Shown: positions 721 to 31,210 of the stretch, piece by piece
Position numbering within the stretch: position 1 is the stretch's first letter
Layout of the letters: every line of letters begins with the position of its first letter
From: Kiritimatiellia bacterium
GTDB taxonomy: Bacteria; Verrucomicrobiota; Kiritimatiellia; RFP12; UBA3636
DNA length: 32,000 nt
Assembly (NCBI GenBank): GCA_050942875.1
Contig: JBMNOD010000006.1
Span: forward strand, 28,609 to 60,608
Reading direction: 5' to 3'
The notes under the pieces: generated by a model
Told to the model about the DNA's origin: nothing
What the model saw: the letters and a program-made list of their open reading frames with translations, nothing else
Database searches by the model: none
Program-made: the position numbers and the translations under genes

Positions 721-3267
721 CTACAACTCGGCTCGCACCTTTCTCTCAAACGCCCTGATCTTCTTTCGAATGGGCTCAATCTTTTCGACACGGAGGCGAT
801 GATTGTTTTTTGCGATCGCAATTCTTTCTGATTCAGCCTTTTCAAAATCTTTCTTGGCGGGCTCATAACGGTCGAGTATAAACCGTCTTCCAAGAAAATT
901 CACGCCTTCTTGCATGTAGTCTATAATTTTATCCTGTGTTTTCATAAAATATTCAACATTCGGTTCGCTCAGTTTTTCTCTCGTTTCCACCGAATCAAAG
1001 AGTTTTTCAAATCCTTCTTTAACTTCAGGCACCAACTTCTCCGCCATGCGACCGATTCGTTCCTTCCCGCTTGTATCAAGTTCCTTATCGGTTGCTCCTT
1101 TTATTCGCTTTATTCCGTCATGGATTTTGTCAAACCAAACACCAAAAATCGTTGCGATCATTTTGAAATAGGGCATTTGATAGACTTCATTCAATTTTTT
1201 GCCAAAATCTTTGTTGTTCAAACAGGCGTCTTGAAATTCAGACAGGAAGGTCTGAATGGTCTCCGCTCCAGGAAGCGAAATTTCAAAATTCGTCAAAAAT
1301 TCAGAATGCTCATTGACAATGGCCTGCCATGATGAATCAATTTTTTTGCCGACGTCCTCGGTACGTCGTTTGAGGGTGTCAAGACTCTTCGGTTTCTGGG
1401 AGTCGTTCTTTGAAGGATGCTTCCAGGACTCCAAAACACGGATGATAGAAGTTCTAAACGCTTCCGACACCCCCGGAGAAGCAAAATCCATAATCTTCAC
1501 TTTCACAGGAGACTTTCTTAACGTCATCATAAAACGTCTTTGGACTTTCACAGTCGCCTCTGCAAATTCTTTAGACGCAGCTTCGAGAAATGCATCGTCG
1601 ACGGCTTCTTCGAAAAGATCGTTAGCCAGTCTTTCAGCAAGAAAGTCTTTGTCTTTTACCAATTCCGAGTCCGCGATATCGGCTTTTGCTCTTTCGACGA
1701 AATGTTGAATGGCAGTCTCAGCCGACTCTGCCGCCTTTTCCCATTCATTCGCATCGCGCGTTGCAGCATCTTCGACAACCTTCAGCGCAGATTCATACTC
1801 CTCCAGAGCCTTCGCCGCCTTCGCGCTGCCGTTGTCAACGAGGATGCTGCGGGCTTTCTTCTCGACGATTTCATTTCCCAGGGCCGTCATGATGTCGTCG
1901 ATGTCGCTCTCCTTTCGGACTGCGGCGACACTATCTTTCGTCAGCCCTGAAACATCCGACAGTGCGTCCAAATCTGTGGCCTGGCCCGCCTTGCGCACCA
2001 TCTCCGCCCACATCGCCGCCGGAGAATCCGGTTTGCCCTCCTTCCACCTCGAATCGACCTTCATGCACTTGCGATCAAAAGCGGTAAACTTTTCGGGGTG
2101 GTTGAGCAGCAAGTCGCCTTGCGCCGCCAGGAAGGACAACCGGGCGTTGTAGGGATGCAGCTTCATCGTGAAACCCCGGTTCTTCAAATCCGACTCGGTT
2201 GCCTCGAAAACCATTCCACGCTTGTCTTCGTGCGAGCCTTTCCAGTTGACGGACGCCGTCATTTTAGGCGCCATGCCCATCTTCTTGATTTCACCAAGGA
2301 TTTTGAGGTCCTTCTGCCCGACTTGTTTCTCGCCGCCGATCAAATACCAGACGCCATCCGAAACGAGAATGGCCCTTCTCGCCACGGCGGTGTCGTAGGC
2401 GTTGGCAAAGAGACCCGGGCAGTCCGTCACGCGGCAACCCAGACGGGCAAGCCCTTCGGAACGGATGCGAAGCAACGTTGAATGCACAAAGACAAAGGCG
2501 ACTTCCATGAAATCAAACTGCGCCTTCTCGCCGGCCATCCACCGCTTCATCCATTCCTTCGGGAATGTGATGAGCGTCTGAAAGTCGTTCACCCCCACGA
2601 CCGTTTTCCTTGTCGCCTTCTGGTACTGCGGCGTCCCGTAGAATCGCTCCTGAAGCGTCGCAATTCGGAGTTGGTCCAGCTCGTCGTCTTCAAGCGAACT
2701 TTTATCGGCACTCCAACTATCCCACCATTTATCCAAGACACGTCGAAGCGCCGCGCGATGGGCGCCATTGTCCAAGTCGAAAAAAGATGCAAAGGCATCG
2801 GCAGCCATCATGTTCTGCTCGAACGCCTCGTCGGAAAGATCGGAAAACAGCTTGCGAAACGGCTGGTCCTCAAGCAGTTCGTCCTTGACGATATCGAACA
2901 TCCCCTGCTGAATCTGGTATTTTGTCTTGAACGTGATTTCCGCCCATTCGGACAGGCCGTCGCGCGTCTCGTCCCCGGAAACGTTCTGGGCGGAGACAAT
3001 GGCGGCGCTCGTCTTGATGCCGCCGCCGCCCAAGCCGCGGGGGCTGAGATCGCGTCCATCGCAAAGCGCGTTGAACGTCGTCGACTTCCCGCCCTGAAAT
3101 TCACCCACAAGGACGATTTCAAACTGGTTCTCAAGGCACTTGGTGCGGATGGCCTTGAGCTCGTCGGCCAGGGATTCGGGGATCTTGAGCCTTGCAGTTT
3201 CTTTCAGAAGCGCAAGGAGCTCGTCGCGGCGATTTTCGTACCAGGTTGATTTGTCGGCGATTTTCAT
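721..3267 (-). CDS. dynamin-family GTPase, 848 aa, with a large insert inside the G domain and a low-GC C-terminal third
   Basis: ORF track. G1 is LVGEFQGGKSTTFNALC (aa 55-63) and G3 is VTDCPGLF (aa 282-285). The remainder is long and helical. A GAGGA lies about 10 nt upstream of ATG 3267. The gene is tightly linked to ORFs on both sides. Confidence 0.8.
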   Translation of the reverse strand: MKIADKSTWYENRRDELLALLKETARLKIPESLADELKAIRTKCLENQFEIVLVGEFQGGKSTTFNALCDGRDLSPRGLGGGGIKTSAAIVSAQNVSGDETRDGLSEWAEITFKTKYQIQQGMFDIVKDELLEDQPFRKLFSDLSDEAFEQNMMAADAFASFFDLDNGAHRAALRRVLDKWWDSWSADKSSLEDDELDQLRIATLQERFYGTPQYQKATRKTVVGVNDFQTLITFPKEWMKRWMAGEKAQFDFMEVAFVFVHSTLLRIRSEGLARLGCRVTDCPGLFANAYDTAVARRAILVSDGVWYLIGGEKQVGQKDLKILGEIKKMGMAPKMTASVNWKGSHEDKRGMVFEATESDLKNRGFTMKLHPYNARLSFLAAQGDLLLNHPEKFTAFDRKCMKVDSRWKEGKPDSPAAMWAEMVRKAGQATDLDALSDVSGLTKDSVAAVRKESDIDDIMTALGNEIVEKKARSILVDNGSAKAAKALEEYESALKVVEDAATRDANEWEKAAESAETAIQHFVERAKADIADSELVKDKDFLAERLANDLFEEAVDDAFLEAASKEFAEATVKVQRRFMMTLRKSPVKVKIMDFASPGVSEAFRTSIIRVLESWKHPSKNDSQKPKSLDTLKRRTEDVGKKIDSSWQAIVNEHSEFLTNFEISLPGAETIQTFLSEFQDACLNNKDFGKKLNEVYQMPYFKMIATIFGVWFDKIHDGIKRIKGATDKELDTSGKERIGRMAEKLVPEVKEGFEKLFDSVETREKLSEPNVEYFMKTQDKIIDYMQEGVNFLGRRFILDRYEPAKKDFEKAESERIAIAKNNHRLRVEKIEPIRKKIRAFERKVRAEL

Positions 3268-3302
3268 GAATTTGAATCCTCTTCAAGTTTGACTTTTCTG
3301 CT

Positions 3303-5627
3303 TCAAGCGACATGGGCGGCGGCGTTTTTCGCTTCAACAACAAGCGGAAGCGCCTGCCGGGCCAGACGGATGCCCGAGGTCGGCGCCTCGGTGAGATCCG
3401 CTTTGTAGTTGCGGGCGATGATGCGGAGCGCGGTGTCGGAGCTCTCCGAACGAACGAAGGCGTCCGTGGCGCTCTCGACGACCGCGGCAAAAATGCGGTT
3501 GGGGGAAAAGGACTGCGTTGTCGCCGCGTTTTTCTCAAGGGATTCCAGGAGATCCTTGAGGATCAAAGGATCGGGAACTACGCGCTCAAGCTGCCGCCTC
3601 CATTTTTCCAGCCCTCCCGTGGAGCCCGCCGCACGGCTCTTCATCGCGGCATGGTACTTGTTCGCGCTGTCGCGAAGCTGCTTGAGCAAGGCGTCGACAA
3701 ACGATTCCGCGTCCTTGTCGTCACCCGTTTTGTATTGAGGCAATTCGTTGGCGCGAATGACGTCCGACACGGCGACAAGCGTCGGTTCGAGGTGGAACCG
3801 GAAGCGGAGGTCGAACTCGCAAAGCCGCTCAAGCGGAGCCGCAAGCTGGGCGAGCACCTTGTCCTCGCCTCGCTTCTGGCCTGGCGTCCGGCGGATTTTC
3901 TCTGCGGTTTCCTTGAGTTGCGCGCGAACGGACGCGAGGTCGTTGGCGGCGTCGGGACGCGCCGGCACGAAGGCGCGCGTCGGCGCTTTCAAGCTCTCGA
4001 CGATGCCGTCCAGGATTTCCGCGATGCGTCCCTGGAGATGGTCGTCCGTCCGATCCCACTGCTCGCGGAAACGGACGCGAAGGGTGTTGATCACATCGGA
4101 TGGCTGGGCGCGCTTGCGCACCATTTCATCCCGGACCGCCTGACGCAACGCCTCGACGGAACCATAGCCGCAGCCCTCGTCAATCCACTTGAGAACCAGC
4201 TCGGCGGTTCGGCTGACTTCGGCATCCCATTCGGCATCCACCCCGGCTTTCTGGGCCGACACCTTCTGCGCGAATGCGTTCAACGACTTGGCGATGTCCC
4301 GGATCAAGCCTTCCGCGAACAGCTCGTCGCTCTGGTTGTCCTTCGCGACATCCTCGATCTTGCGTGAAACGTCGTCCAGGATTTTTTGAATGCCCTTCAA
4401 GCTTCGCCCGGCCTCCTTTTTGACCGCTTCATCTGCGGCGGCATCGATCTCCGAAAGGTTGTCCCCGAGGAACCTGAGGATTTCCGGCATCGTTTTCTCT
4501 CTCACGTTCTTGCGGTTGCTGGCGTCGCATCGGATGATCTTGAACCGCGACGCTTCGGATCGCTTCTCGTTGATGTTGCGATGGATCGAATCGATGCACC
4601 CCTCTGCACGTTCGGGATCCTGGTTGTCGACATTGGCAAGCACGAGCGTGAATTTCGATTGATCCTGCACCAGCGGGTTCGCCTCCCCCATGGCGACCAG
4701 GGCATTGTCGTCCGCGCCCGTCCACTCGATGTTGGTGTCCAAGGGACGTTTCATCAGAAGCGTCATGTCGCACTCGTCTTTCATGCCCTGCGCCTGCACA
4801 CGCGCCAAATCGCGGCCCGCTTCGCCAACGCCGGGAAGATCGACAACCCGAAGCTGCCTGACCTCGGCCGACGGGAACGGCACTCGGATGACGAGGTTCT
4901 TCACCGCGAGGAACGGCCCGGCCTTTGTCCTGCCGCCTTCAGGATAGGCGACGTACGGGCGCAATTCAGGAAGCGGGATTTTCCGCTGCCGCTCCCCGGT
5001 GAGCTCATCCCGATAGGTCGCATGCGCTTGTCGCGCATCCTCGAGTCGAGCGAGAACCGATTTCTGCTCGTCGTACTTCAAATTGTCGCTGGAAAACGTC
5101 ATCCCGACAAAATCGTCAAATGTGCGAGGAGCCGGGAACCGGACCGCATCGCACATCGGCGCAATGACTTCCGCCAGAAAACTGGCCTCGGTATGCATGT
5201 CGGCAATGGCGACGCCCTCCTGGTTCGTATTCTCAATCACGCTGCGGATCGCCGTGGTGAAATACTTGTCGGAAGTCGGAATCTGCGTTTCCCCGAGGCC
5301 GGTCACCGCCTGGAGGAAGGTGCTCTTGCCCATGCGGGCGGCGCCCCCGATGCCGATGCAGACCGTGTCGCGGCTGAACCGCTCCAGAAGAACCGCGTAT
5401 TTTCGCACCACCTCATCCGCTGAAACGACGGCATCCCGGATCTGATTCGAAAGCCCTTTCAGGGATTCGTTCCCCTCTGCGGAACCGGCGGCATGGACGG
5501 TGCCGACAGACCGATCCAAGGCGTCTCTGAGCGAAGCCCATTTGGCTTTCTCCGCCTCGATTGCGGGCAGCCGCGTTTTTCTCGCTTTGAGGATGGAATC
5601 GATTTTAGACTGGATGGATGATGTCAT
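3303..5627 (-). CDS. dynamin-family GTPase, 774 aa
   Basis: ORF track. G1 is GIGGAARMGKSTFLQAV (aa 93-102) and G3 is VVDLPGVG (aa 263-266, the DLPG form typical of dynamins). The C-terminal region is long and helical. There is a 35-nt gap to the next gene. Confidence 0.75.
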   Translation of the reverse strand: MTSSIQSKIDSILKARKTRLPAIEAEKAKWASLRDALDRSVGTVHAAGSAEGNESLKGLSNQIRDAVVSADEVVRKYAVLLERFSRDTVCIGIGGAARMGKSTFLQAVTGLGETQIPTSDKYFTTAIRSVIENTNQEGVAIADMHTEASFLAEVIAPMCDAVRFPAPRTFDDFVGMTFSSDNLKYDEQKSVLARLEDARQAHATYRDELTGERQRKIPLPELRPYVAYPEGGRTKAGPFLAVKNLVIRVPFPSAEVRQLRVVDLPGVGEAGRDLARVQAQGMKDECDMTLLMKRPLDTNIEWTGADDNALVAMGEANPLVQDQSKFTLVLANVDNQDPERAEGCIDSIHRNINEKRSEASRFKIIRCDASNRKNVREKTMPEILRFLGDNLSEIDAAADEAVKKEAGRSLKGIQKILDDVSRKIEDVAKDNQSDELFAEGLIRDIAKSLNAFAQKVSAQKAGVDAEWDAEVSRTAELVLKWIDEGCGYGSVEALRQAVRDEMVRKRAQPSDVINTLRVRFREQWDRTDDHLQGRIAEILDGIVESLKAPTRAFVPARPDAANDLASVRAQLKETAEKIRRTPGQKRGEDKVLAQLAAPLERLCEFDLRFRFHLEPTLVAVSDVIRANELPQYKTGDDKDAESFVDALLKQLRDSANKYHAAMKSRAAGSTGGLEKWRRQLERVVPDPLILKDLLESLEKNAATTQSFSPNRIFAAVVESATDAFVRSESSDTALRIIARNYKADLTEAPTSGIRLARQALPLVVEAKNAAAHVA

Positions 5628-5710
5628 GGCGTTTGTTTCCTGAGGATTCGAGTGAAAGGAAATTCAATCCGCCAGGCGGAAGCCTGGCGGCAAAAAAGAC
5701 GACCGTGCGA

Positions 5711-7429
5711 CTACAAGGCCGCGACCGCCTGTTCGAGTTCGGACTTCAGGGCGAGAAGCGCCTGTTTTTCCTCGGACGATGCTTCCGATCTCATGCCCGC
5801 CCGTATTGCCGCAATTTGTTCCTCGTACTGGGCGACCAGCCCTTGTTTCGCCTCGCCCTTGATCTTCTCGAAGTTTTCGTCAAGCTGCGACTGAATGCTC
5901 TCAGTCATTTGCCGCCGGGCTTCATCAAGCTGGGTTTTCACCTTCTTGACCAAGACGGCCTTCACAAGATTCTGGGACGTCAGTTTGTTTAAAAGCGGGA
6001 CGTTGCTGTGGAGGATTCTGCCGACCACGGCGAGGATCCAACCCATGGGAAGCAGCAGATTCATCACGGCGACGTTCACGACTTCACAGGCAAAAGCGGG
6101 GATTTTTCCGGCGACGCCCGGATCAATGCTCAGTCGCTCCCTGGCAAATTCGCTGAAGCCCATGCCAACAGAAGCCATGTCGCCTTGGTACTTGAAGACG
6201 ACCTGCTGCACGTCGTTGTTCACTTGCGCTTGCACGCCATAAAGCAGAAAGGTCATTTTCCTGTTCATCTTCTGCTCCAGCAACCCGACAAACTTCTGTA
6301 CGTCACCCAATTCCTTTCGGGCGCCGATTTCCTCCATGAGTTCATCAAAGACCTGAGCTATAGCGTCTTCAAATCTCTCAAGCGATTTCATTTTAACGGT
6401 GTCGAAATCGCCCTCGATCTGCCGGAACAAACGCTCGAAATTGTCACGAAGCTCCTTTTCCTTCCTGTCGAGCTCGACTGAAAGCGCCGCTTTCTCAGCG
6501 TCGGATTGCCCCAGCGTGCTGATCTTTGCGGAAATCTCCATCAGCAGGTTGCCGAGGAAGCGCTTCGTGCGAAGGGCCACTTTCTCGGTGCGCCCCTCCA
6601 AGGCGTTCTTCACCAGAAAATCGCGGATGACGAATCTGATTTCCGGAACCGTGTTGAGAATGTCGGGCACCGCCTCGTCGAAGCAAAACATTTCAACCGG
6701 GACGTCCTCCTTCCCGATGTTGGCCAACTGGGCCTTGACGGTCTCCATGATGTTCTTGCGGGTTTCTTCCGTGCGTTCGCTTTCGGGACGATAGGAAAGG
6801 AGCACCATCAGCCTGGAGATGCCGTCATTCACCAGATCCCGGCGGATCAGCGTCATCTCCACCTCGTCAAGCTGGGAACATCCGGCGACGACGATCGCCA
6901 AGTCCGCTTCGGGGATGACGCGATACGTTGTGTTGACGAGCAAGCTGGGATCCGGATCGTCGATCCCCGGCGTGTCCACAATCGTGTACCCCTTGAGATG
7001 CTCGTTGGGGGTCAGGACGCGAACCTTGGGCAGACGAGCCGCAAGGGCGGCACGCGACTCTCCGGTATTGGCGACCGTCACGTCGCGGATGTCGTCTTTC
7101 GTCGGATTGTCAATTGTGCGGTCAATGCCGACCTTCGTCTTTTCCCCGTCGGCCCATTTGTAGACAACCAGTTTGGAATCAAGGCCGTAGGCGACCTCGG
7201 TCGCCACGGCCGTCGTGCAGATCCCGTTCCCCTCCAGAAGCAGCGGCGCATCGCCGAGGAAGGCGCGGTTGACGAGCGTGGACTTGCCCACCTGGTACTT
7301 TCCCACGACGGCAACCCGAAACTCCGGGTTGTCCAGTGCCTCAATGTCCGCCCGCAACTTCTCCGGCAAAGCCACGGCGTTTTTGTTCAATACCGAAACC
7401 GCATTCTGGATCGCATTCCTTTTGCTCAT
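5711..7429 (-). CDS. bacterial dynamin-like protein (BDLP-type), 572 aa, with a hydrophobic paddle
   Basis: ORF track. G1 is VVGKYQVGKSTLVN (aa 43-51) and G3 is IVDTPGIDD (aa 152-155). A helical stalk follows. The hydrophobic hairpin IPAFACEVVNVAVMNLLLPMGWILAVVGRIL (aa 442-473, nt about 6011-6106) resembles a BDLP membrane paddle. This is the first gene of the operon. Confidence 0.85.
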   Translation of the reverse strand: MSKRNAIQNAVSVLNKNAVALPEKLRADIEALDNPEFRVAVVGKYQVGKSTLVNRAFLGDAPLLLEGNGICTTAVATEVAYGLDSKLVVYKWADGEKTKVGIDRTIDNPTKDDIRDVTVANTGESRAALAARLPKVRVLTPNEHLKGYTIVDTPGIDDPDPSLLVNTTYRVIPEADLAIVVAGCSQLDEVEMTLIRRDLVNDGISRLMVLLSYRPESERTEETRKNIMETVKAQLANIGKEDVPVEMFCFDEAVPDILNTVPEIRFVIRDFLVKNALEGRTEKVALRTKRFLGNLLMEISAKISTLGQSDAEKAALSVELDRKEKELRDNFERLFRQIEGDFDTVKMKSLERFEDAIAQVFDELMEEIGARKELGDVQKFVGLLEQKMNRKMTFLLYGVQAQVNNDVQQVVFKYQGDMASVGMGFSEFARERLSIDPGVAGKIPAFACEVVNVAVMNLLLPMGWILAVVGRILHSNVPLLNKLTSQNLVKAVLVKKVKTQLDEARRQMTESIQSQLDENFEKIKGEAKQGLVAQYEEQIAAIRAGMRSEASSEEKQALLALKSELEQAVAAL

Positions 7430-8153: not shown

Positions 8154-8307
8154 CCGGGACGGCGTCGCCCCACCTTCCATCCATCCGCCATAATCTGGAA
8201 TTTTCTTCCAGATTAAAGCAAGTGGGGAGGAATATAACGGGGCACGGGTTTTCCAACCCGTGGACGACCACGGACAGGAATGTCCATGCCCCTGGTTTCG
8301 AGGCGCC
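8154..8307. repeat. repeat module B, copy 1 (about 150 bp, multi-hairpin)
   Basis: It is near-identical to 8993-9147. It contains the hairpin taatctggaa/ttccagatta and a nested core (8239-8295): GGGGCACGG[GTT-ttcc-AAC]CCGTG...[GGACA-ggaa-TGTCC]...GCCCC. Confidence 0.9.
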
Positions 8308-8992: not shown

Positions 8993-9147
8993 CCGGGACG
9001 GCGTCGCCCCACCTTCCATCCATCCGCCATAATCTGGAATTTTCTTCCAGATTAAAGCAAGTGGGGAGGAATATAACGGGGCACGGGTTTTCCAACCCGT
9101 GAATGCACCCACGGACAGGAATGTCCGTGCCCCTGTTTCCGAGGCGC
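8993..9147. repeat. repeat module B, copy 2
   Basis: This is a direct repeat of 8154-8307. Differences are concentrated in the linker between the two inner hairpins (gtggacgaccacgg versus gtgaatgcacccacgg). Confidence 0.9.
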
Positions 9148-15911: not shown

Positions 15912-17186
15912 ATGAAATTCAACACCACCCGCCTGAAGCGCGACTTCCAGCTCGGCGTCAAGAACCTGATGCTCCACAAGCTCCGATCCCTGCTCACCAT
16001 GCTCGGCCTCGTCTTCGGCGTCGGCAGCGTGATCGCCATGCTCGCCATCGGCGAAGGCGCCAGCCAGGAGGCCATGGACCAGATCCGCAAGCTCGGCAGC
16101 CGCAACATCATCATCTCCTCCCAGAAGCCCGTCGAGGACAGCGGCTCGGCGCAGAGCAACGTGCGCGTCAGCATCTACGGCCTGCTCTACGAAGACCTCG
16201 AACGCATCGCCCAGACCATCCCCACCGTCGTCGCCACCGTGCCCGTCAAATCGCTCCAGCAGCAGGCGCGCCTCGGACGCCGCGAGCAGGAATTGCGCAT
16301 CGTGGGCACCACGGATCGCTGGTTCGAGCTTGTCGAGCGCGACGTCGTCGCCGGCCGCGTCATGAACGCGCGCGACGTGGAATCCGCCGCCTCGGTCGTC
16401 GTGCTCACCGAATTCGGCGCACGCCGCCTGCTCGCGACCGAATCGGCGATCGGACGCCAGATCCGCATCGCCGGCAAGGCCTACGAGATCATCGGCATCG
16501 TCCAGAGCGAAGACACCAGCGCCGGCGGCATGCAGACGCCCGACCGCCAGACGGACGCCTACATCCCCCTCTCCACCGCCCGCCAGCACTACGGCGACGT
16601 CTTCTTCCAGCGCAAGCAAGGCACCAACATCCGCGAAATGGTGGAGCTGCACCAGCTCATCGTCAGCGTCGGCAACGAAGCCGAAGTCGAGCCCGCGGCC
16701 GTCGCGATCGAGCACGTGCTCGAACGCTTCCACAAGAAGAAGGACTACGAGATCAGCGTCCCCCTCGCCCTGCTCCGCCAGGCCGAAGCCACGAAGCGCA
16801 CGTTCGCCATCGTGCTTGGCTCCATCGCCGGCATCAGCCTGCTCGTCGGCGGCATCGGCATCATGAACATCATGCTCGCGACCGTCACCGAACGCACCCG
16901 CGAAATCGGCATCCGCCGCGCCATTGGCGCCCGCCGCTCGCAGATCGTCTCCCAGTTCCTCATCGAAACGATCGTCCTCTCGCTCAGCGGCGGCGTCATC
17001 GGCATCGGCGTCGGCCTCTTCATCCCGTGGCTCGTCACCGCCTTTGCGAAGATGCCCACCGTCGTGACGCTCCACAGCATCGTCCTCTCGCTCGGCATCA
17101 GCGTCAGCGTCGGCATCGTCTTCGGCATCTACCCCGCCCGCCGCGCCGCCCGCCTCGACCCCATCGAAGCGCTCCGCAGGGAATAG
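15912..17186 (+). CDS. ABC transporter permease (MacB periplasmic domain plus FtsX domain)
   Basis: It is 424 aa with an N-terminal TM, a large periplasmic domain and a C-terminal FtsX-like 3-TM region (GGIGIMNIMLATVTERTREIGIRRAIGA). Confidence 0.9.
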   Translation: MKFNTTRLKRDFQLGVKNLMLHKLRSLLTMLGLVFGVGSVIAMLAIGEGASQEAMDQIRKLGSRNIIISSQKPVEDSGSAQSNVRVSIYGLLYEDLERIAQTIPTVVATVPVKSLQQQARLGRREQELRIVGTTDRWFELVERDVVAGRVMNARDVESAASVVVLTEFGARRLLATESAIGRQIRIAGKAYEIIGIVQSEDTSAGGMQTPDRQTDAYIPLSTARQHYGDVFFQRKQGTNIREMVELHQLIVSVGNEAEVEPAAVAIEHVLERFHKKKDYEISVPLALLRQAEATKRTFAIVLGSIAGISLLVGGIGIMNIMLATVTERTREIGIRRAIGARRSQIVSQFLIETIVLSLSGGVIGIGVGLFIPWLVTAFAKMPTVVTLHSIVLSLGISVSVGIVFGIYPARRAARLDPIEALRRE

Positions 17187-17191
17187 AACTC

Positions 17192-17270
17192 AGCGGCTAG
17201 CGGCCAGCGGCTAGCGGCTAGTGCCAAAGGCGAGCTTTGTCGAAAGCTTTGTCGCAAAACTTTGTCGACC
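17192..17270. repeat. composite repeat: AGCGGCT heptamer array (17192-17221) plus CTTTGTCG x3 (17235-17267)
   Basis: It begins 6 nt after the permease stop. It is the inverted partner of 9347-9410. Confidence 0.75.
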
Positions 17271-17476: not shown

Positions 17477-17520
17477 GCTAAAAGGTCATTCCCGAGGTCT
17501 GGGGCAGGCCGCTTCGCGGC

Positions 17521-17562
17521 AGCGGCTAGCGGCTAGCCCCTAGCGACTAGCGACTAGCGACT
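17521..17562. repeat. heptamer tandem array (agcggct x2, agcccct, agcgact x3)
   Basis: Six 7-nt units are present. CTAG sits at every unit junction (TAG at 17527, 17534, 17541, 17548 and 17555). Confidence 0.9.
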
Positions 17563-17703
17563 CAATCGGGCAGGCGGCGGGGCGGGTTCGAGGCTGGACG
17601 ACAAGCGTTCCGAAGCAACCCCGTCGACTGACCGATTACGATTACAATCAATGAACGGCAAGCAACGGATCTGCCGCCCATCGAGGAATCAACCGGCTCG
17701 TCC

Positions 17704-17745
17704 GCCCCTGCACCCTCGCCTCCGGCGCCGCTCGATTCACCAACA
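17704..17745. repeat. 42-bp direct repeat, copy 1
   Basis: The sequence gcccctgcaccctcgcctccggcgccgctcgattcaccaaca is identical to 18496-18537. Confidence 0.95.
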
Positions 17746-17846
17746 GACGGCGAACGACGCCTTTCACCGCTTCAGGCTATTTTTGAAGCGGCGTCAGCTT
17801 CTTTTGAAGCCTGGACAAAGCACACCGGGGCTGTCCCCAAAAATGC

Positions 17847-18137
17847 TTAACGAAGGTGTTCCCTAATCCACCGTGGATCCCGACGACAATCAAGAACCGC
17901 TCGCACACGGACAATGCCGTCATCGACTCGATAATAGACTGCAAACGGGAACCGTCTGGAGAGCAACCGATGATATCCGTGGCAGATGGCATGAATCCCG
18001 CCATAAAGACGGAGAGAATTGATGTCGGACCAAAGCGTATCCAAGAAGTAGTCTCCTAGACCCTCGGCTTGCCGTTCATAGAAACGGTAGCCCTCCGCAA
18101 GATCCGAAGTGGCTTCCTCAAGGATTTGGACTTTCAT
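17847..18137 (-). CDS. parE: ParE/RelE-family type II toxin, 96 aa
   Basis: The sequence MKVQILEEATSDLAEGYRFYERQAEGLGDYF...HRLLSRRFPFAVYYRVDDGIVRVRAVLDCRRDP fits the ParE pattern. I chose the internal ATG at 18137, which overlaps the end of the antitoxin gene by 20 nt. The ORF-track start at 18266 is unlikely. Confidence 0.85.
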   Translation of the reverse strand: MKVQILEEATSDLAEGYRFYERQAEGLGDYFLDTLWSDINSLRLYGGIHAICHGYHRLLSRRFPFAVYYRVDDGIVRVRAVLDCRRDPRWIREHLR

Positions 18138-18360
18138 TTCCGCTTGCAATCTGCTCGCGCACCGCCCGTTTGGCTTCTTCGACTTCGAGGAACCTCGCCG
18201 TGCCGTCCGCGACACGCTGCTCACGGACGCGCAAGACGTCGCCATGCCAGGCAGGCGCAGGAACATCCGCAGGATTGCGAACCAGATCGGCCCAGATTTC
18301 CTCGATCATCTGGAGCTTTTCCGTCACGGACATCTTCTGTAGTGGAATGGCTAATTGCAT
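18118..18360 (-). CDS. putative addiction-module antitoxin (TIGR02574-like), 80 aa
   Basis: The sequence MSVTEKLQMIEEIWADL...PAPAWHGDVL..R...EEAK fits this small antitoxin family. A GGGGA RBS lies before ATG 18360. The gene overlaps parE. Confidence 0.75.
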   Translation of the reverse strand: MQLAIPLQKMSVTEKLQMIEEIWADLVRNPADVPAPAWHGDVLRVREQRVADGTARFLEVEEAKRAVREQIASGNESPNP

Positions 18361-18495: not shown

Positions 18496-18537
18496 GCCCC
18501 TGCACCCTCGCCTCCGGCGCCGCTCGATTCACCAACA
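18496..18537. repeat. 42-bp direct repeat, copy 2
   Basis: It is identical to 17704-17745. It is followed by aaaaaattggggacagaccccttccgcccg. Confidence 0.95.
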
Positions 18538-18618
18538 AAAAAATTGGGGACAGACCCCTTCCGCCCGGAGGTGAGGGGCGAAGGAACGACGCGCCTCAGA
18601 CTGCGGTACGGAGCGACG

Positions 18619-19065
18619 CTAGTTTGCAGGCGCTTGTTCGGACTTCCTTAGTCCATTCCAGATTTGATCAACTTCCGGCGAGTCCGCGATTCGCGGCCAA
18701 CCTTGCGTGCGCACAATGTTCTTGCGAAGCCCCAAGGCGGCCAAGTTCGCCTCCACATCGGACAGATTGCCCTGTGCAGATGATAGCGTCTTCATGTCCA
18801 CCACGAAGTAAAATGGGTGCGTGCGATTGTCGTCCCCGCCGTGTCTGCATCTGCCCGATGCCGCTCGTGCGATGTGGGTGATCTCGGTTGCGTACGAGAA
18901 GATGATCGCTTCACCGGTGTCGATTCCGCCATCGGCGATTCGTCCCTGTGTGAGCAGAAACTGTCCCGGCGGATTCCTGTTTGGCAGCTTCACCTCGAAA
19001 TAGGTGTCTACGCTAGCTCGATCGGGAAAGTCGATGTCCTTGGAACTCAGTTTGATTATCCTCAT
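18619..19065 (-). CDS. hypothetical protein, 148 aa, downstream partner of the SEFIR/TIR gene
   Basis: ATG 19065 is preceded by AGGAGAAAGAACC, a good RBS. The protein begins MRIIKLSSKDIDFPDRASVDTYFEVKL... and I recognise no motif. The ORF-track start at 19167 would overlap the upstream gene and adds a non-protein-like extension. Confidence 0.6.
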   Translation of the reverse strand: MRIIKLSSKDIDFPDRASVDTYFEVKLPNRNPPGQFLLTQGRIADGGIDTGEAIIFSYATEITHIARAASGRCRHGGDDNRTHPFYFVVDMKTLSSAQGNLSDVEANLAALGLRKNIVRTQGWPRIADSPEVDQIWNGLRKSEQAPAN

Positions 19066-19141
19066 GGTTCTTTCTCCTGTCCGAACGACTGCACTCACGG
19101 GCGGCGGTACGCCGTACCGTGGAGTGCTTTGTTGTGCCTCC

Positions 19142-20587
19142 TCATGGGAGCGAAGCCAGTTTGTCAACCCCCATCAGGCTGAATGGATTAAACGATTGAA
19201 ACTCCCACCTAGGAATTTGTAGTTTCTGTTCCTTGAAAGCTTCGGCGAGAGGCAGAAAATCGTCTTTGGATTCGATATCGAAGATCTGTTTCACATTCTC
19301 GAAATACTTAGATGATTGACTACGTGCGAAGATCTCAAAAGGGCCATACTGCCGACCAGAGTAAAGCAATGTAACCGGCAACCAGCCCTGCCGACGACCT
19401 GTGCGGAGGACATCCAGACAGTCTCTCACAAAGAGGGCTAGATCAGCTTGCATAATCTGCTGAAACAGCCCTGATGCTTTGGACCTCTGTTCAAGAAGGT
19501 CAGCGTGTAGGGAGAGCCTGCGGAGTTTAAGTCGCGTGTTTCTGTGGTCCAGCGACTGCAAAAATACGCTAAGTTTTGAGAACGGCACCATCGTGTCCCG
19601 ACCACGCTTTGAGTTCTGGTCAACGTAGTAGTGCTGGCGCACAAGATGGGCGACTCCATCAAAGCGCTCTGCACGTAGAAGTACAGCAACAAGATATAGA
19701 AACAGTTCGTGGACAATGAACTTGAGATTGTCGAAGTCCCAGTCTTGCCAACTGGTGACACCATCTGGCCGATCGAAGTAAGGGAAGAGTGACTCTATGA
19801 AATAGTGCAAGGACTCCCAAGACGCTACCGTAGGGCGGTATCTCGCAATAGCAAGGAATAGTTCAATGGCTTCGTTTCGGTATGGCAGGAACTCATCAAT
19901 GCTGCGGACAACCTTCTCGTCGAACTCCTCATTGTCCTTTTCTATACGAAACCGCTCAAGATTCTCGGCAACCACCTCCACATATTCGCGGAGTGCGCCA
20001 TCGCAGTAGGGTTTGTTTTCTCGTACAGCCTGCAACGCTCGCCGGAACTGGGCTGTCGCTTGAAGCGATATCGGCGCGTCGTCAGAAAGAAACGCCGGGG
20101 CACTACCAAGCTCGGGCTTTACATGGAGAGGCTTGTCGTATATCCAGCGGAGAAGTTGCTCGAAATTCCTTGCGTACAGGTCTGGATCACTGAGGTCGAT
20201 ATAGACACGGGATTTGTAGTAAGCGGGGAGGAATGGTTCTCCCTTAGTGTCCCGTTGCGGCAACACGGCGACGAACTTGGTTTGATCCTGCTTCGCATAG
20301 ATCTCGCCAGAAAGGATTTGCGCTTCTGTGCCAACGCCACCACTTCGGCCGTCCGCCTTTTCGGCGTAGACTTGATCACAAATCATGGCCACCTTCTTGA
20401 TCTCTGGATCTGTGACCATCTTTTCCATGAACGCGTGCGCATCATGGCCTTCCTTCAGATCCCATTTGTCTAAAATGACATCAACTCCATTCTCCCGGAG
20501 TTGGGTGGCCAACGACAGCACCCACTCCTCATGTGAGGATGAGGTCCAGCTGTATGAAATAAACAGCTTCGGTGGGTTTACTGTCAT
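19142..20587 (-). CDS. SEFIR/TIR-domain protein with an unassigned helical C-terminal domain, 481 aa
   Basis: The N-terminus reads KLFISYSWTSSSHEEWVLSLATQLRENGVDVILDKWDLKEGHDAHAFMEKMV..KVAMICDQVYAEKADGRSGGVGTEAQIL, the bacterial SEFIR/TIR_2 pattern. About 310 further residues are helical. Local GC is low. Confidence 0.8.
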   Translation of the reverse strand: MTVNPPKLFISYSWTSSSHEEWVLSLATQLRENGVDVILDKWDLKEGHDAHAFMEKMVTDPEIKKVAMICDQVYAEKADGRSGGVGTEAQILSGEIYAKQDQTKFVAVLPQRDTKGEPFLPAYYKSRVYIDLSDPDLYARNFEQLLRWIYDKPLHVKPELGSAPAFLSDDAPISLQATAQFRRALQAVRENKPYCDGALREYVEVVAENLERFRIEKDNEEFDEKVVRSIDEFLPYRNEAIELFLAIARYRPTVASWESLHYFIESLFPYFDRPDGVTSWQDWDFDNLKFIVHELFLYLVAVLLRAERFDGVAHLVRQHYYVDQNSKRGRDTMVPFSKLSVFLQSLDHRNTRLKLRRLSLHADLLEQRSKASGLFQQIMQADLALFVRDCLDVLRTGRRQGWLPVTLLYSGRQYGPFEIFARSQSSKYFENVKQIFDIESKDDFLPLAEAFKEQKLQIPRWEFQSFNPFSLMGVDKLASLP

Positions 20588-20728
20588 CTTGTCATCTCCT
20601 TTCTGTCATTCCGGGCAAAACAGTGTTATTGAGCCTACCTCGCGAAGGCGGGTAGTTCCCATTAACTACTAAATGATGTTCGTTCTGACGGCTACGGTCA
20701 AGCGCACATTACATTGCTCGGCAACCCC

Positions 20729-21052
20729 TTAATCTTTGGTCTTGCCTTTAAGGCAGGCTTTATGCAAACTGTTGAAGTAGTCTTTGTGAGGGTTTATGGT
20801 TTTAAAGACGGGCCCCTTTTTTGCATTTTCGATCGTTTGCTTGAGCATTCTCCCATACGATGCCGGGTAATGCCTTTTGTAAAACGCAAGGTTCGAGGCC
20901 CGGATGCGCTGATACCAGAAACGATCGTCGTCAACTGGACGCCCTCGGGTCACGCAAACATAGCATTCCGTTTCCGAACAAGAGAATTTTTCAAGCCACG
21001 CTCGAAATTCTTGCCGAGACGTTACGTCCAACTTGTTTTTATGTTCCATCAT
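20729..21052 (-). pseudogene. internally deleted copy of the YdeI/OmpD-associated family gene
   Basis: It shares the first 47 residues (counted from MMEHKNK) with the 21361-21939 gene. It then jumps from ...RFWY directly to QRIRASNLAFY..., which is an in-frame loss of 96 codons. The C-terminus has diverged. Confidence 0.7.
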
Positions 21053-21274
21053 GTCCTTTCCCTCGAATCCGCAGGAAGGATATCCCATGCGAAACGCCCG
21101 AGTCAACCGGAACCATAAAAAAATTGGGGGACAGACCCCTTCCGCCCGTGTCGAACTCAGCGGCTAGCGGCTAGAGCGACTTGAGAAATAATATCGCCGC
21201 ACGATTTGAACTAGGATTCGGCGTTTTGGAGCTGGAGGATAGAATATGGACACGGATTTTCTTAAACCGCTCTA
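20813..21274. repeat. tandem segmental duplication, unit A (deleted version)
   Basis: It aligns with 21412-22161 apart from the 288-bp deletion. It includes the shared upstream block caaccggaaccataaaaaaattgggggacagaccccttccgcccgtgtcgaactcagcggctagcggctagagcgac... Confidence 0.9.
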
Positions 21275-21360: not shown

Positions 21361-21939
21361 TCAGGGAACTTCCAGCAATCTCCCATAATCATTCCAGTTG
21401 CCGCACGTTTTCCCCTTTTTTGCATTCTCGATCGTTTGCTTGAGCATTCTCCCATACGATGCCGGGTAATGCTTTTTGTAAAACGCAAGGTTCGATGCCC
21501 GGATTCGCTGATACAGGGGGTGGAAGGATTTGAAAGCCGACCAAACCCGGGCGTTTTTCAAGGCGGCCTCGACCTCCTTGTCGATTGTGAAAGCACCGGG
21601 CTCCATCGCAGGCAAAACGGCGCGCCCGGCATCGGTCATCAACCCCAGTTTTTCGAGTCTTCGCACGCGCACTTTATTCAATTCAGTCCAATTGCCGTTC
21701 TTGCGCCTGGGGGAAAACCGCTGCATCTTTTTCCCATCGATCATTCTGATGGTGCTGTCAATCCATCCAAAACACAGCGCTTCTTCGACGGCATCCAAAT
21801 ACCAGAAACGATCGTCGTCAACTGGACGCCCTCGGGTCACGCAAACATAGCATTCCGTTTCCGAACAAGAGAATTTTTCAAGCCACGCTCGAAATTCTTG
21901 CCGAGACGTTACGTCCAACTTGTTTTTATGTTCCATCAT
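21361..21939 (-). CDS. YdeI/OmpD-associated family protein (DUF1801-like), 192 aa
   Basis: The sequence ...FRAWLEKFSCSETECYVCV..GRP.....FWYLDAVEEALCFGWIDSTIRMIDGKKMQRFSPRRKNGNWTELNKVRVRRLEKLGLMTDAG fits the YdeI family pattern. I chose ATG 21939, which follows GAGGGAAAGGA, over the track start at 21993. Confidence 0.8.
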   Translation of the reverse strand: MMEHKNKLDVTSRQEFRAWLEKFSCSETECYVCVTRGRPVDDDRFWYLDAVEEALCFGWIDSTIRMIDGKKMQRFSPRRKNGNWTELNKVRVRRLEKLGLMTDAGRAVLPAMEPGAFTIDKEVEAALKNARVWSAFKSFHPLYQRIRASNLAFYKKHYPASYGRMLKQTIENAKKGKTCGNWNDYGRLLEVP

Positions 21940-22161
21940 GTCCTTTCCCTCGAATCCGCAGGAAGGATATCCCATGCGAAACGCCCGAGTCAACCGGAAC
22001 CATAAAAAAATTGGGGGACAGACCCCTTCCGCCCGTGTCGAACTCAGCGGCTAGCGGCTAGAGCGACTTGAGAAATAGTATAGCCGCACAATTTGAATTA
22101 GGATTCGGCGTTTTGGAGCTGGAGGATAGAATGTGGACACGTATTTTCTTAAACCGCTCTA
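21412..22161. repeat. tandem segmental duplication, unit B (full version)
   Basis: See 20813-21274. The period is about 887 bp. Confidence 0.9.
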
Positions 22162-22396: not shown

Positions 22397-22453
22397 GGGG
22401 CACGGGTTTTCCAACCCGTGAACGACCACGGACAGGAATGTCCGTGCCCCTGG
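22397..22453. repeat. third copy of the nested multi-hairpin core element
   Basis: The sequence ggggcacgggttttccaacccgtgaacgaccacggacaggaatgtccgtgcccctgg matches 8239-8295 and 9078-9135. The flanking modules are in a different order and orientation. Confidence 0.9.
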
Positions 22454-22528
22454 TTCCCAACCGCACCGCGCCGAAGCGCGGGCGAAGGGCGGCTCGCCGG
22501 GACGGCGCCACCCCACCCTGCCACCACC

Positions 22529-29656: not shown

Positions 29657-29830
29657 ATGCCCTCCTTGATGGCAGGCATTATACAATCTTTGTATGATTC
29701 TCGTCAACCGAATCGTACCCGTACCCAGCGAAGCGGTAAGCGTTCACATTCACGAAAAACGGAAACGGGGGGCGTGAACGGGTACGGGTACGTGAACGAG
29801 CGGGCTTTTGGGGACAGACCCCGGTGCTCC

Positions 29831-30286
29831 TTATTTCAGCGGGGGATACCGGAGTGAAATTCCACCATGCTCCTCGACGAACTTTCCAAGGTCTCCGTCA
29901 AAACGCACTTTCACAGTAACAGGGGCTTCACCAAGAAAACGTAATGCTGTTATCCACCAGTAGGGAGTTGACGACAGCCCAATTTTGACCTCTTCAATTT
30001 GCTCCGTTTCCCATAGAACCCCATTTACATATACCGACATGACTCCGCTGGCCTTGATGGCCGTTCTATATTGGTTAGGATTGGCAGATCGATGAATGGG
30101 CCCCACGACATCGCCTTCACGATACTTTGTTTTGACTTGATACACTTTTCCAGGAATGGCTTTAAACTCGTACCATCCTTCGTTGTCGGGGCGGTAATAG
30201 GTCTTACGCGAAGAAAGAAACATTAGCATTGCGGTGCAAATGGCTCCTCTGCAAACAAGAGGCAAATTCGATTTACGGCGTTTCAT
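29831..30286 (-). CDS. hypothetical protein, 151 aa, N-terminal signal/anchor, beta-rich
   Basis: ORF track. It shares an ATGA overlap with the upstream ORF. Local GC is low and I recognise no motif. Confidence 0.6.
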   Translation of the reverse strand: MKRRKSNLPLVCRGAICTAMLMFLSSRKTYYRPDNEGWYEFKAIPGKVYQVKTKYREGDVVGPIHRSANPNQYRTAIKASGVMSVYVNGVLWETEQIEEVKIGLSSTPYWWITALRFLGEAPVTVKVRFDGDLGKFVEEHGGISLRYPPLK

Positions 30287-30819
30287 TTTCTTCTATCCTT
30301 GGAATGTTCTTCCACAAGGGCAAACTTTCTCAATGTTCGCCTGACGCCGCAAAATGTCAGGCACCCAATGAAAATTGATTTTCCGCCAAAGTCAATTTGA
30401 ATGGAATGAACCTCTGTGCGGCGGAAAAAATTCTTGAAATACTGTCCTGCTCCAAATTCAGCCGCCTTTCCTTTTGCGTATTCACAAGCATCCATGAATG
30501 AAGGAAAGGAAACCGAATCGACCATTGCTTTTAGATGCTCAAACTTTCTGGCGTAAACTCCACCCGATAAAGTGCAAAGGTAGGCAACGTGCTTTCCAGG
30601 ATCATACAGCACCTTGTAGCATTCGTTTGCAAAGCGTTTTCTTGCGAGGAAAATGACGCGTGCGGTCAGTGCCATCACAACGGCAACAACGGCCACAGCC
30701 CACCCAATCACTTTTGGAAACATGGCAACCTTCAAAAGGTACAACGGCATGGCAACCAAAATCAGAGCCAGGCATAAAGAAAGCCGGGTGTTGTCGGCTA
30801 ATGGCATGAGGCGTTTCAT
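30283..30819 (-). CDS. hypothetical membrane protein, 178 aa (two N-terminal TM helices plus a soluble domain)
   Basis: The TM helices are LSLCLALILVAMPLYLL and VIGWAVAVVAVVMALTARVIFL. GC is low (26/60 in 30421-30480 by hand count). Confidence 0.6.
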   Translation of the reverse strand: MKRLMPLADNTRLSLCLALILVAMPLYLLKVAMFPKVIGWAVAVVAVVMALTARVIFLARKRFANECYKVLYDPGKHVAYLCTLSGGVYARKFEHLKAMVDSVSFPSFMDACEYAKGKAAEFGAGQYFKNFFRRTEVHSIQIDFGGKSIFIGCLTFCGVRRTLRKFALVEEHSKDRRK

Positions 30820-30980
30820 AATGAATCATGATAGCAGTTGGCGTTTCACAACTCAAGCCTTGAGCATTTGGAAGACGTTTCACCAAGGAGCTTTTGGGGA
30901 CAGACCCCAAGATGGCGAGAAGAGAGGAGTGAGGAGTGAGGAGTTTCCGCTGGGGCTTCGCCCCAGACCCCCCTTTCTCA

Positions 30981-31170
30981 GTGAGGAGTGAGGAGTGAGA
31001 AGAGCGTAGTTCAGGCTGGGGGCACCCCAGACCCCGGCTATTACCTCTTTTTCTGTGTCTTTCTGTGTTTCTGTGGACAAAAAACATTCGGCGGAGCCGC
31101 CTCGGCAGGTCAACCGGGGTCTGGGGTGTCCCCAGCCAACACTCCTCTCTACGCTCTTCTCACTCCTCAC
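30981..31170. repeat. long composite inverted repeat (about 55-nt arms, about 76-nt loop)
   Basis: Segment 30988-31009 pairs perfectly with 31149-31170 (22 bp). Segment 31015-31037 pairs with 31114-31136 (23 bp, 1 mismatch). The arms contain GAGGAGT heptamers and the loop contains ttctgtg repeats. Confidence 0.85.
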
Positions 31171-31177
31171 TAAACAA

Positions 31178-31210
31178 GGGGGATTTTGGGGACAGACCCC
31201 AAAATCCCCC
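31178..31210 (-). terminator. candidate intrinsic terminator of the pseudouridine synthase gene
   Basis: A perfect 14-bp stem (gggggattttgggg / ccccaaaatccccc) with a 5-nt loop lies 7 nt downstream of the stop at 31217. On the minus strand it is followed by TTGTTTA. This is the longest member of the GGGGACAGACCCC motif family. Confidence 0.5.

Follow-up and report, generated by a model that had tools for sequence, protein, structure and literature searches.

In published work, SEFIR is a single-protein defence system that depletes NAD+. The SEFIR gene of Bacillus sp. NIO-1130 alone gives protection against phi29 (Millman et al. 2022), and the D40A substitution in this Bacillus protein, which affects an Asp at the SEFIR-SEFIR interface, abolishes defence. 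In the methods of that study, proteins were selected when the SEFIR match was N-terminal and stronger than the TIR match. A full-text literature search with the name 'bSEFIR', under which PADLOC lists the family, found no papers. In a second NAD+-directed system, Metis, a PUA-like domain senses m6dAMP and triggers an NAD+-degrading effector (10.1101/2025.11.05.686725). Modification-dependent (type IV) restriction endonucleases, among them the EVE-HNH enzymes VcaM4I and TspA15I (PMC7897488, PMC6765204), carry sensors of the PUA superfamily on the N-terminal side of an HNH or PD-(D/E)XK-like nuclease, and Bell et al. 2020 (PMC7641849) describe standalone EVE proteins beside restriction systems such as type I HsdR.

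The window analyzed here, a stretch of 32,000 nucleotides from a Kiritimatiellia bacterium, carries on its minus strand a 481-aa ORF followed by a 148-aa ORF (Table 1). The initial annotation had proposed that they form a dedicated two-gene defence module, made of a SEFIR/TIR-domain protein with an unassigned C-terminal add-on and a small partner. Both ORFs, the motifs of the larger protein (KLFISYSW, EEWVLSLATQLRENGVDVILDKWDL, KVAMICD and GGVGTE), the spacer and the AGGAGA ribosome binding site (RBS) were confirmed. The PADLOC bSEFIR profile (PDLC03957) matched the 481-aa protein over its full length (E=2.9e-120, 400.8 bits; residues 4-479 on profile positions 36-384 of 412), and the protein is 100% identical to the NCBI entry 'SEFIR domain-containing protein [Kiritimatiellia bacterium]'. 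With Pfam, SEFIR (1.5e-17) and TIR_2 (1.8e-15) were detected within residues 7-146. The SEFIR match (64.7 bits, residues 7-124) exceeded that of TIR_2 (57.9 bits) and both were N-terminal, the same relation that Millman et al. used for selection. The crystal structure of a B. cereus SEFIR domain (5Y8E) matched the N-terminal domain at the sequence level with E=3.7e-33, and was also recovered from the PDB by Foldseek (E=1.3e-7). These matches support the assignment of this domain to the SEFIR/STIR group. In an alignment of 32 homologues, D40 (in ILDKWD) and E88 (in GGVGTE) were invariant; D40 aligns with the ILDRW motif of 5Y8E and may correspond to the D40 that was mutated in the NIO-1130 protein.

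The C-terminal domain is the family's own conserved domain and not a special add-on, contrary to what had been noted at first. It belongs to the bSEFIR family because the PADLOC profile spans residues 4-479, and it is kept in all of the best 120 of at least 2,580 homologues, which are ~480 aa long and share the same architecture. Many of its residues are invariant among the 32 aligned homologues. The AF2 model has helices over residues 178-472, with a pLDDT of mostly 80-95. Structural comparison with Foldseek gave no PDB match for this domain, and the N-terminal domain alone was matched.

As judged from these profile and alignment matches, the larger gene encodes a canonical bSEFIR, an ordinary member of an already described single-gene anti-phage system, and by family membership the gene would be an anti-phage defence gene, as had been suggested. 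It shares with the described bSEFIR the N-terminal SEFIR match above TIR, the full-length profile match that includes the C-terminal domain, the invariant Asp in ILD(K/R)W and the invariant GGVGTE, a defence-island context, a wide phyletic spread including archaea, and the lack of a conserved partner gene. It differs in its host, a Kiritimatiellia bacterium, in its length, which at 481 aa exceeds that of the PADLOC profile (476 residues are placed on 349 profile positions), and in the PUA-like gene located 3' of it in this one genome. With Thoeris and other multi-gene TIR systems it has in common a STIR-superfamily domain and an NAD+-directed mechanism, but the window has no ThsA-like SIR2/Macro-SLOG effector, and by the published description the SEFIR protein itself is the effector. 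We infer that the N-terminal SEFIR domain is the NADase effector and that the C-terminal domain acts as a phage sensor or regulator. From what is known of the family, the helical C-terminal domain would detect infection, the SEFIR domains would then associate via the D40 interface, and the associated domains would hydrolyse NAD+ to ADP-ribose and nicotinamide. Loss of NAD+ would starve the phage, and bSEFIR would be a self-sufficient single-protein abortive-infection system.

Table 1. Coordinates of the features described, as positions in the window.
Feature	Position	Strand	Basis or remark
bSEFIR gene, 481 aa	19142..20587	-	PADLOC bSEFIR PDLC03957 match, NCBI identity
SEFIR (STIR) domain, N-terminal, residues 6-158	20114..20572	-	Pfam, PDB 5Y8E, Foldseek, family alignment
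All-helical C-terminal domain, residues about 175-481	19145..20065	-	PADLOC profile, alignment, AF2
Weak sigma-70-like promoter match 5' of SEFIR	20673..20701	-	9/12 positions, consensus match only
76-nt spacer with the border between two separately inherited blocks, and with the small-ORF RBS	19066..19141	-	
148-aa gene, stand-alone PUA-like family member, putative modified-base reader	18619..19065	-	
Terminator-like hairpin and T-run after the small ORF	18548..18566	-	Copy of a motif recurring across the window
Toxin-antitoxin cassette	17847..18360	-	Antitoxin 18118-18360, ParE/RelE-like toxin 17847-18137

The 148-aa ORF is a real and independently mobile gene. It starts with an ATG exactly 76 nt after the TGA stop of the SEFIR gene, with the AGGAGA 7-12 nt upstream. 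A 182-aa version with a TTG start was rejected, because the MRIIKLS sequence that follows the ATG is nearly invariant in the family alignment. We found 37 close homologues, at 45-91% identity, which stop at about the same point, and a deep search extended the family to about 229 clusters at 50% identity. The dN/dS is about 0.16-0.20. Twelve residues are invariant in the family, the aromatics F56, Y58 and W123 are conserved, and 94 of the 147 listed representatives are stand-alone proteins of 160 aa or less.

No match to the small protein was found in Pfam, NCBIfam or PADLOC at E<=1, and the family profile gave nothing meaningful against PDB sequences. Its AF2 model (pLDDT 89.6) matched by Foldseek almost exclusively YTH, EVE and ASCH domains and the reader domain of VcaM4I; the top matches were YTH, EVE (2gbs, 1zce, 3eop), VcaM4I (6yex) and an uncharacterised archaeal protein (2p5d). 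The scores were moderate (probability up to 1.0, TM 0.5-0.58, E of 2e-3 or weaker). In BFVD the best structural match was an EVE-domain protein (E=7.6e-4). From the predicted structure, the small protein is probably a stand-alone modified-base reader with a PUA-like (YTH/EVE/ASCH) fold, and its ligand is most likely a modified base or a modified nucleotide.

Relatives fused to other domains point in the same direction. In nearly all of 45 such fusions the reader-like domain is N-terminal, and the partners include HNH_2 (16), HNH (15), NOV_C (6), TIR_2 (2) and AAA_5 (1). Two PADLOC models of the type IV methyl-directed REase (mREase_IV) matched 18 and 9 of these proteins. By domain content the family appears mostly to form the N-terminal part of HNH restriction enzymes of type IV, and in rare cases that of TIR or McrB-like proteins; in most multi-domain relatives it would serve as the N-terminal sensor of type IV HNH/PD-(D/E)XK enzymes. 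This resembles VcaM4I and TspA15I both in the YTH/EVE/ASCH-like fold and in the position of the domain relative to HNH or PD-(D/E)XK-like nucleases, whereas the window protein has neither a nuclease domain nor a Pfam sequence match to EVE, YTH or ASCH. Like the standalone EVE/ASCH proteins of PMC7641849, it is a stand-alone reader-type protein of a kind found in defence contexts, and one of its homologues lies beside type I HsdR; its sequence family differs from theirs, and its contexts are highly variable.

To learn whether the two genes belong together, their co-occurrence was analyzed. No relative of the small ORF was found by tblastn in 13 genome and 45 metagenome SEFIR loci, and the small-ORF profile gave 0/60 hits at E<=1 in the six-frame translations of 60 SEFIR loci. 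These 60 loci take in relatives 82% and 79% identical to the window SEFIR, and in at least 29 the 3' end is complete, with space for a further gene downstream. No conserved neighbour family was common to the SEFIR homologues (12 loci), and in 10 other loci with small-ORF homologues there was no SEFIR or TIR gene. The dedicated two-gene module proposed initially was thus not borne out; by these searches the small gene is no conserved partner of SEFIR and appears to be a coincidental neighbour.

The spacer holds the border between two homology blocks. Homology to a SEFIR relative (L078) spans window positions 20622-19084, and homology to a small-ORF relative (L025) spans 19087-18609, so that the two blocks abut at about 19084/19087. 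The source of the second block is a copy with 91% identity within a Mu-like prophage, where it is located between the portal gene and the protease gene, on the opposite strand and with no SEFIR gene. The unit in which the small ORF is transferred measures about 480 bp. We consider it very probable that the locus consists of two separate, independently acquired genes that have come to lie next to each other in a small defence patch of low GC. The second gene would be a stand-alone copy of the PUA-like domain, mobile as a cassette of one gene and with a prophage moron as its closest relative. That the two genes adjoin, and are probably co-transcribed, would result from insertion into the same hotspot, with no dedicated partnership.

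It is unlikely that the pair is instead a lineage-specific two-gene module, in which the PUA-like reader would work in trans with the bSEFIR NADase. Such a reader might respond to a modified nucleotide or to modified phage DNA, and SEFIR activation might be gated or widened by it. The arrangement in this genome is what such a module would have: the two genes may be co-transcribed, since they are on the same strand and 76 nt apart, with a terminator-like site after the pair and none found between them. The same short spacer, however, holds the border of two blocks with separate homology boundaries, neither the 82%- and 79%-identical SEFIR relatives nor any other of the 60 loci has the reader, and the closest reader does without SEFIR. 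The module could be viewed as a split version of reader-TIR fusions, which do exist as two clusters, P0182 (TIR_2 at 3.2e-28) and P0249. Their TIR domains, though, are not SEFIR-like (E=0.044 at best with the SEFIR N-domain profile), and no similarity was found between the fused TIR domains or other fusion partners and the N- or C-terminal domain of the window SEFIR, which is itself complete, canonical for its family and equipped with a conserved C-terminal domain. Locus L021 has a stand-alone reader ahead of an HNH gene whose type occurs elsewhere as a fusion with the reader; this arrangement resembles a split reader and HNH pair and makes trans-acting pairs of reader and effector conceivable. 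Conceptually the module would be like MisA of Metis, where a PUA-like sensing module also acts together with an NAD+-depleting effector; but the MisA sensor is fused to its effector, this effector is a metallophosphatase yielding NMN and AMP, and a MisB nucleotidase is the partner, whereas the window has no such fusion, metallophosphatase or nucleotidase. In such a module, a mobile reader would have been captured 3' of bSEFIR in this Kiritimatiellia lineage and, co-transcribed with it, would serve in trans as an extra input or as a buffer of the NADase, the input being for example phage DNA with modifications or modified mononucleotides that infection sets free; to this we assign a low probability.

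A phage-derived moron that acts on its own and was left after insertion of a mobile element seems improbable as a specific account of the small gene, and this account is compatible with two separate genes rather than an exclusive alternative to them. Such a moron could serve counter-defence as a decoy, hiding modified bases from type IV restriction, or it could be a superinfection-exclusion factor. That the small protein is a type IV restriction sensor domain without a nuclease speaks for this account. The position of the closest relative between Mu-like genes and the transfer as a short unit agree with a phage origin, as does another relative in a ParB/D5-primase/HNH mobile element; but no relatives were detected in a scan of IMG/VR viral contigs, several homologues are in plain chromosomal contexts (in a nuo operon, beside argS), and no experimental precedent was found in the literature consulted. 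Decay of a type IV restriction enzyme after loss of its HNH domain is hardly credible as the origin of the small ORF: reader-HNH fusions are indeed most of the multi-domain relatives, but the low dN/dS, the stand-alone state of most listed representatives, the 12 invariant residues, the shared start and end of close homologues and the gene's own RBS all argue against decay.

Among neighbouring genes in the loci compared, the only assignments confirmed were HNH (L021), UDG (L031), HEPN_LA2681 (L080) and a weak PDDEXK_5 (L015). HEPN and PD-(D/E)XK motifs seen by eye in neighbours (L026, and upstream in L021) had no Pfam or PADLOC support. A common upstream partner of small-ORF homologues was also rejected: the upstream genes (about 125-157 aa) are mutually unrelated, and show no relation to anything in the window.

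As it stands, the SEFIR gene is one more bSEFIR instance, already annotated in NCBI as a SEFIR-domain protein, and matters little. A by-product of modest value is the conserved domain family of the small gene, which has no Pfam annotation, resembles the PUA-type sensors with which type IV restriction enzymes read modified bases, has TIR and McrB-like fusions as well, and is very often a stand-alone gene that moves independently. Were such stand-alone readers to act in trans on neighbouring effectors, a wider modular sensor-plus-effector logic of defence would follow, in which the family would be a portable sensor, in cis as well as in trans, for interchangeable effectors (HNH, NOV_C, McrB-like, HEPN, TIR/SEFIR).

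The composition of the patch sets it apart from the efflux genes of the window. The GC content is 0.507 for the SEFIR gene and 0.555 for the small ORF, against 0.65-0.66 for the efflux genes, and GC3 is 0.56-0.63 against 0.89-0.93. The counts given earlier for two 60-nt segments of the patch (22/60 and 29/60) were exact, and the efflux genes gave 39-43/60. The GGGGACAGACCCC hairpin with a T-run found after the small ORF recurs after minus-strand genes across the window, including at 29.8-31.2 kb. An integron-like cassette array with these repeats as recombination sites was rejected, given their window-wide recurrence; no GTTRRRY-type attC core was seen in the spacer, and Pfam scans of the larger ORFs of the window revealed no integrase. 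The ParE toxin-antitoxin cassette reported beside the patch stood in part. The toxin (96 aa) had no PDB match, and its ParE_toxin match, although full-length, was sub-threshold (E=0.0033, 18.4 bits, cut-off 23), whereas the antitoxin, encoded upstream of it, was clearly identified (PF09720, 1.2e-12).

The initial annotation had proposed a two-gene defence module, formed by a SEFIR protein whose C-terminal domain was left unassigned and by a small partner. Both ORFs, with the SEFIR motifs quoted there, were found on the minus strand (Table). Pfam recognized SEFIR (1.5e-17, residues 7-124) and TIR_2 (1.8e-15) in the 481-aa protein, and its N-terminal domain matched the B. cereus SEFIR crystal structure 5Y8E in sequence (E=3.7e-33) and in predicted fold, which confirms the SEFIR/TIR assignment of this region. 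The PADLOC bSEFIR model (PDLC03957) covered residues 4-479 (E=2.9e-120), and therefore the helical C-terminal domain, previously left unassigned, is part of the described family. In the AF2 model (pLDDT 80) this domain, residues 178-472, is all-helical, and no match to it was found among solved structures. At least 2,580 homologues were detected at E≤1e-10; the best 120 of these were nearly all 480-490 aa long with a query coverage of 95-100%, and included archaeal Methanosarcinaceae and Methanophagaceae proteins. D40 and E88 (GGVGTE) did not vary among 32 aligned homologues, nor did many C-terminal residues. The single SEFIR gene of Bacillus sp. NIO-1130 protects against phi29, and its D40A substitution abolishes defence; 460 genomes of >20 phyla, Methanosarcina included, encode homologues (Millman et al. 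2022). NCBI lists a protein of 100% identity, encoded on a contig of 68.7 kb, under the name 'SEFIR domain-containing protein [Kiritimatiellia bacterium]'. As judged from its sequence, the gene adds a further member to a single-gene system that is known and already annotated.

The small ORF is likewise a genuine gene, with 37 homologues (45-91% identity), 12 invariant residues, a nearly invariant N-terminal MRIIKLS and a dN/dS of 0.16-0.20. By tblastn, no relative of it was found in 13 SEFIR loci from genomes, taken together with 5 kb on either side (best E=3.5), nor in 45 metagenome SEFIR loci, 19 of which extended at least 520 nt past an intact 3′ end. When all 60 SEFIR loci were translated in six frames and searched with the family HMM, nothing reached E≤1; these loci take in the nearest relatives, L078 (82% identity) and L079 (79%). 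No neighbour family at all was common to the SEFIR homologues. Conversely, none of 10 other contexts of small-ORF homologues held a SEFIR or TIR gene; among them were a nuo operon of Desulfonema, a site adjoining argS, a ParB/D5-primase/HNH element, a site downstream of a HEPN_LA2681 gene and adjoining an integrase and an IS, and a site adjoining type I HsdR and a Schlafen-like gene. With 0/60 and 0/10 co-occurrences the two-gene module is not supported, and these comparisons point to an independent gene that is not associated with SEFIR.

DNA homology to L078 extended over positions 20622-19084 of the window, and that to L025, the locus of the closest small-ORF relative, over 19087-18609 only. 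The two blocks meet at a clean junction and have separate histories. In L025 (GCA_005795945.1 SESH01081332.1) the copy (700-1146), 91% identical in protein, is inserted on the opposite strand between the genes for a Mu-like portal and a Mu-like protease (gpI), and the DNA similarity to the window stops within ~20 nt of the ORF. This copy occupies a single-gene moron position in a prophage head module.

The 148-aa protein gave no match in Pfam, NCBIfam or PADLOC. Its AF2 model, a confident one (pLDDT 89.6, pTM 0.85), retrieved PUA-superfamily readers almost exclusively when compared with the PDB by Foldseek, with moderate scores (TM 0.5-0.58, E 2e-3 or weaker): YTH m6A readers, the EVE/DUF55 proteins 2gbs, 1zce and 3eop, the uncharacterised archaeal protein 2p5d, and the EVE-HNH enzyme VcaM4I. 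The top match in a viral structure library was an EVE-domain protein. Searching 1.84 billion representatives with the profile yielded 229 clusters of the family (187 at E≤1e-10). Of 147 representatives examined, 94 were stand-alone (≤160 aa) and 45 were longer fusions, with the reader domain N-terminal in nearly all of the latter. The fused domain was HNH_2 in 16, HNH in 15, a NOV_C nuclease in six, TIR_2 in two (P0182, at 3.2e-28, and P0249) and a McrB-like AAA_5 in one (P0254, 972 aa); PADLOC models of type IV methyl-directed REases matched 18 and nine of the 45. This is the architecture of published modification-dependent restriction enzymes, in which a PUA-superfamily sensor lies N-terminal to a nuclease (PMC7897488, PMC6765204), and standalone EVE proteins close to restriction systems are among those described by Bell et al. 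(2020; PMC7641849). These data support a PUA-like fold and show the fusion logic of the family and, given both precedents, we read the small ORF as a putative stand-alone reader, presumably of a modified base or nucleotide. DUF433 is present in two of the close homologues. The reader domain family itself is absent from Pfam. At L021 (5001-6619) a 367-aa HNH protein, which matches the HNH region of type IV REases in PADLOC (9.7e-8), is encoded 93 nt downstream of a stand-alone reader homologue; this is possibly a split reader and nuclease type IV system within a ParB/D5-primase mobile element.

Could the two genes nevertheless function together in this genome? They lie on one strand, and the 76-nt gap after the SEFIR TGA stop and the AGGAGA RBS were exactly as annotated; no terminator-like site separates the two, and a hairpin of this kind lies downstream of the second gene. 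Reader-TIR fusions occur, L021 resembles a split reader and HNH pair, and in Metis an effector that degrades NAD+ can be driven by a PUA-like sensor (10.1101/2025.11.05.686725). However, conservation of the pairing is entirely absent, the blocks have separate histories, the SEFIR protein is already a complete canonical family member, and the fused TIR domains are not SEFIR-like, so that cooperation is very unlikely. The independence of the two genes is the reading that we prefer.

Both genes lie in a low-GC patch (~17.2-22.1 kb). The earlier hand counts of 22/60 and 29/60 were exact, and the efflux genes gave 39-43/60 on recount. GC is 0.507 for the SEFIR gene and 0.555 for the small ORF vs 0.65-0.66 for the MacAB-like efflux genes, and GC3 is 0.56-0.63 vs 0.89-0.93. 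Regarding the ParE toxin-antitoxin cassette reported beside the patch, the antitoxin was recovered (PF09720), but the ParE-like match of the toxin was sub-threshold. The hairpin TTTTGGGGACAGACCCC is placed 3′ of many minus-strand genes. The spacer repeats are of the hairpin and REP-like kinds and occur repeatedly in the window; their interpretation as cassette recombination sites was rejected. A YdeI/OmdA-like gene is partly duplicated, and its second copy, with ~284 nt missing, diverges at 20813, immediately upstream of the SEFIR block. This partial duplication may be a scar from the rearrangement that imported SEFIR.

Coordinates of the features in the window
Feature	Position (nt)	Strand	Description
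SEFIR ORF	19142-20587	minus	481 aa
Small ORF	18619-19065	minus	148 aa; ATG start; AGGAGA 7-12 nt upstream
Recurrent hairpin	17825-17840, 18544-18567, 21125-21148, 22012-22035, 29796-29827, 30882-30913, 31174-31205	minus	terminator-like
Exact repeat	17704-17745 = 18496-18537		42 nt
(GCGGCTA)n heptamer runs	17177-17235, 17506-17564, 21144-21174, 22031-22061
REP-like elements	8239-8306, 9080-9147, 22397-22464		68 nt
YdeI/OmdA-like gene	21361-21993		210 aa
Second YdeI/OmdA-like copy	20729-21106		125 aa
Duplicated block	20912-21211 = 21799-22098		300 nt, 99%
Duplicated block	20813-20915 ~ 21412-21514		103 nt, 96%
Three large genes	721-7429	minus	848, 774, 572 aa; lower GC3
Second low-GC patch	29831-31170	minus	GC 0.45-0.50; ORFs of 151, 178, 96 aa

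Other loci were noticed. At L079 (1000-2079) a DUF4062 protein (3.3e-29) is encoded 130 nt upstream of the 79%-identical SEFIR; DUF4062 has been renamed the NIR NADase domain (2026 preprint), and therefore this locus holds two adjoining NAD+-type defence genes. The three large genes, ~12 kb from the SEFIR gene, are possibly an Eleos/LeoABC-like dynamin defence operon: the 572-aa protein matches Dynamin_N (5e-12) and, in PADLOC, LeoBC (3.6e-16) and LeoA (7e-13), and the other two gave weak GTPase or LeoBC matches. In the second low-GC patch the first two small ORFs had no PADLOC match, and every ORF is followed by the hairpin motif.
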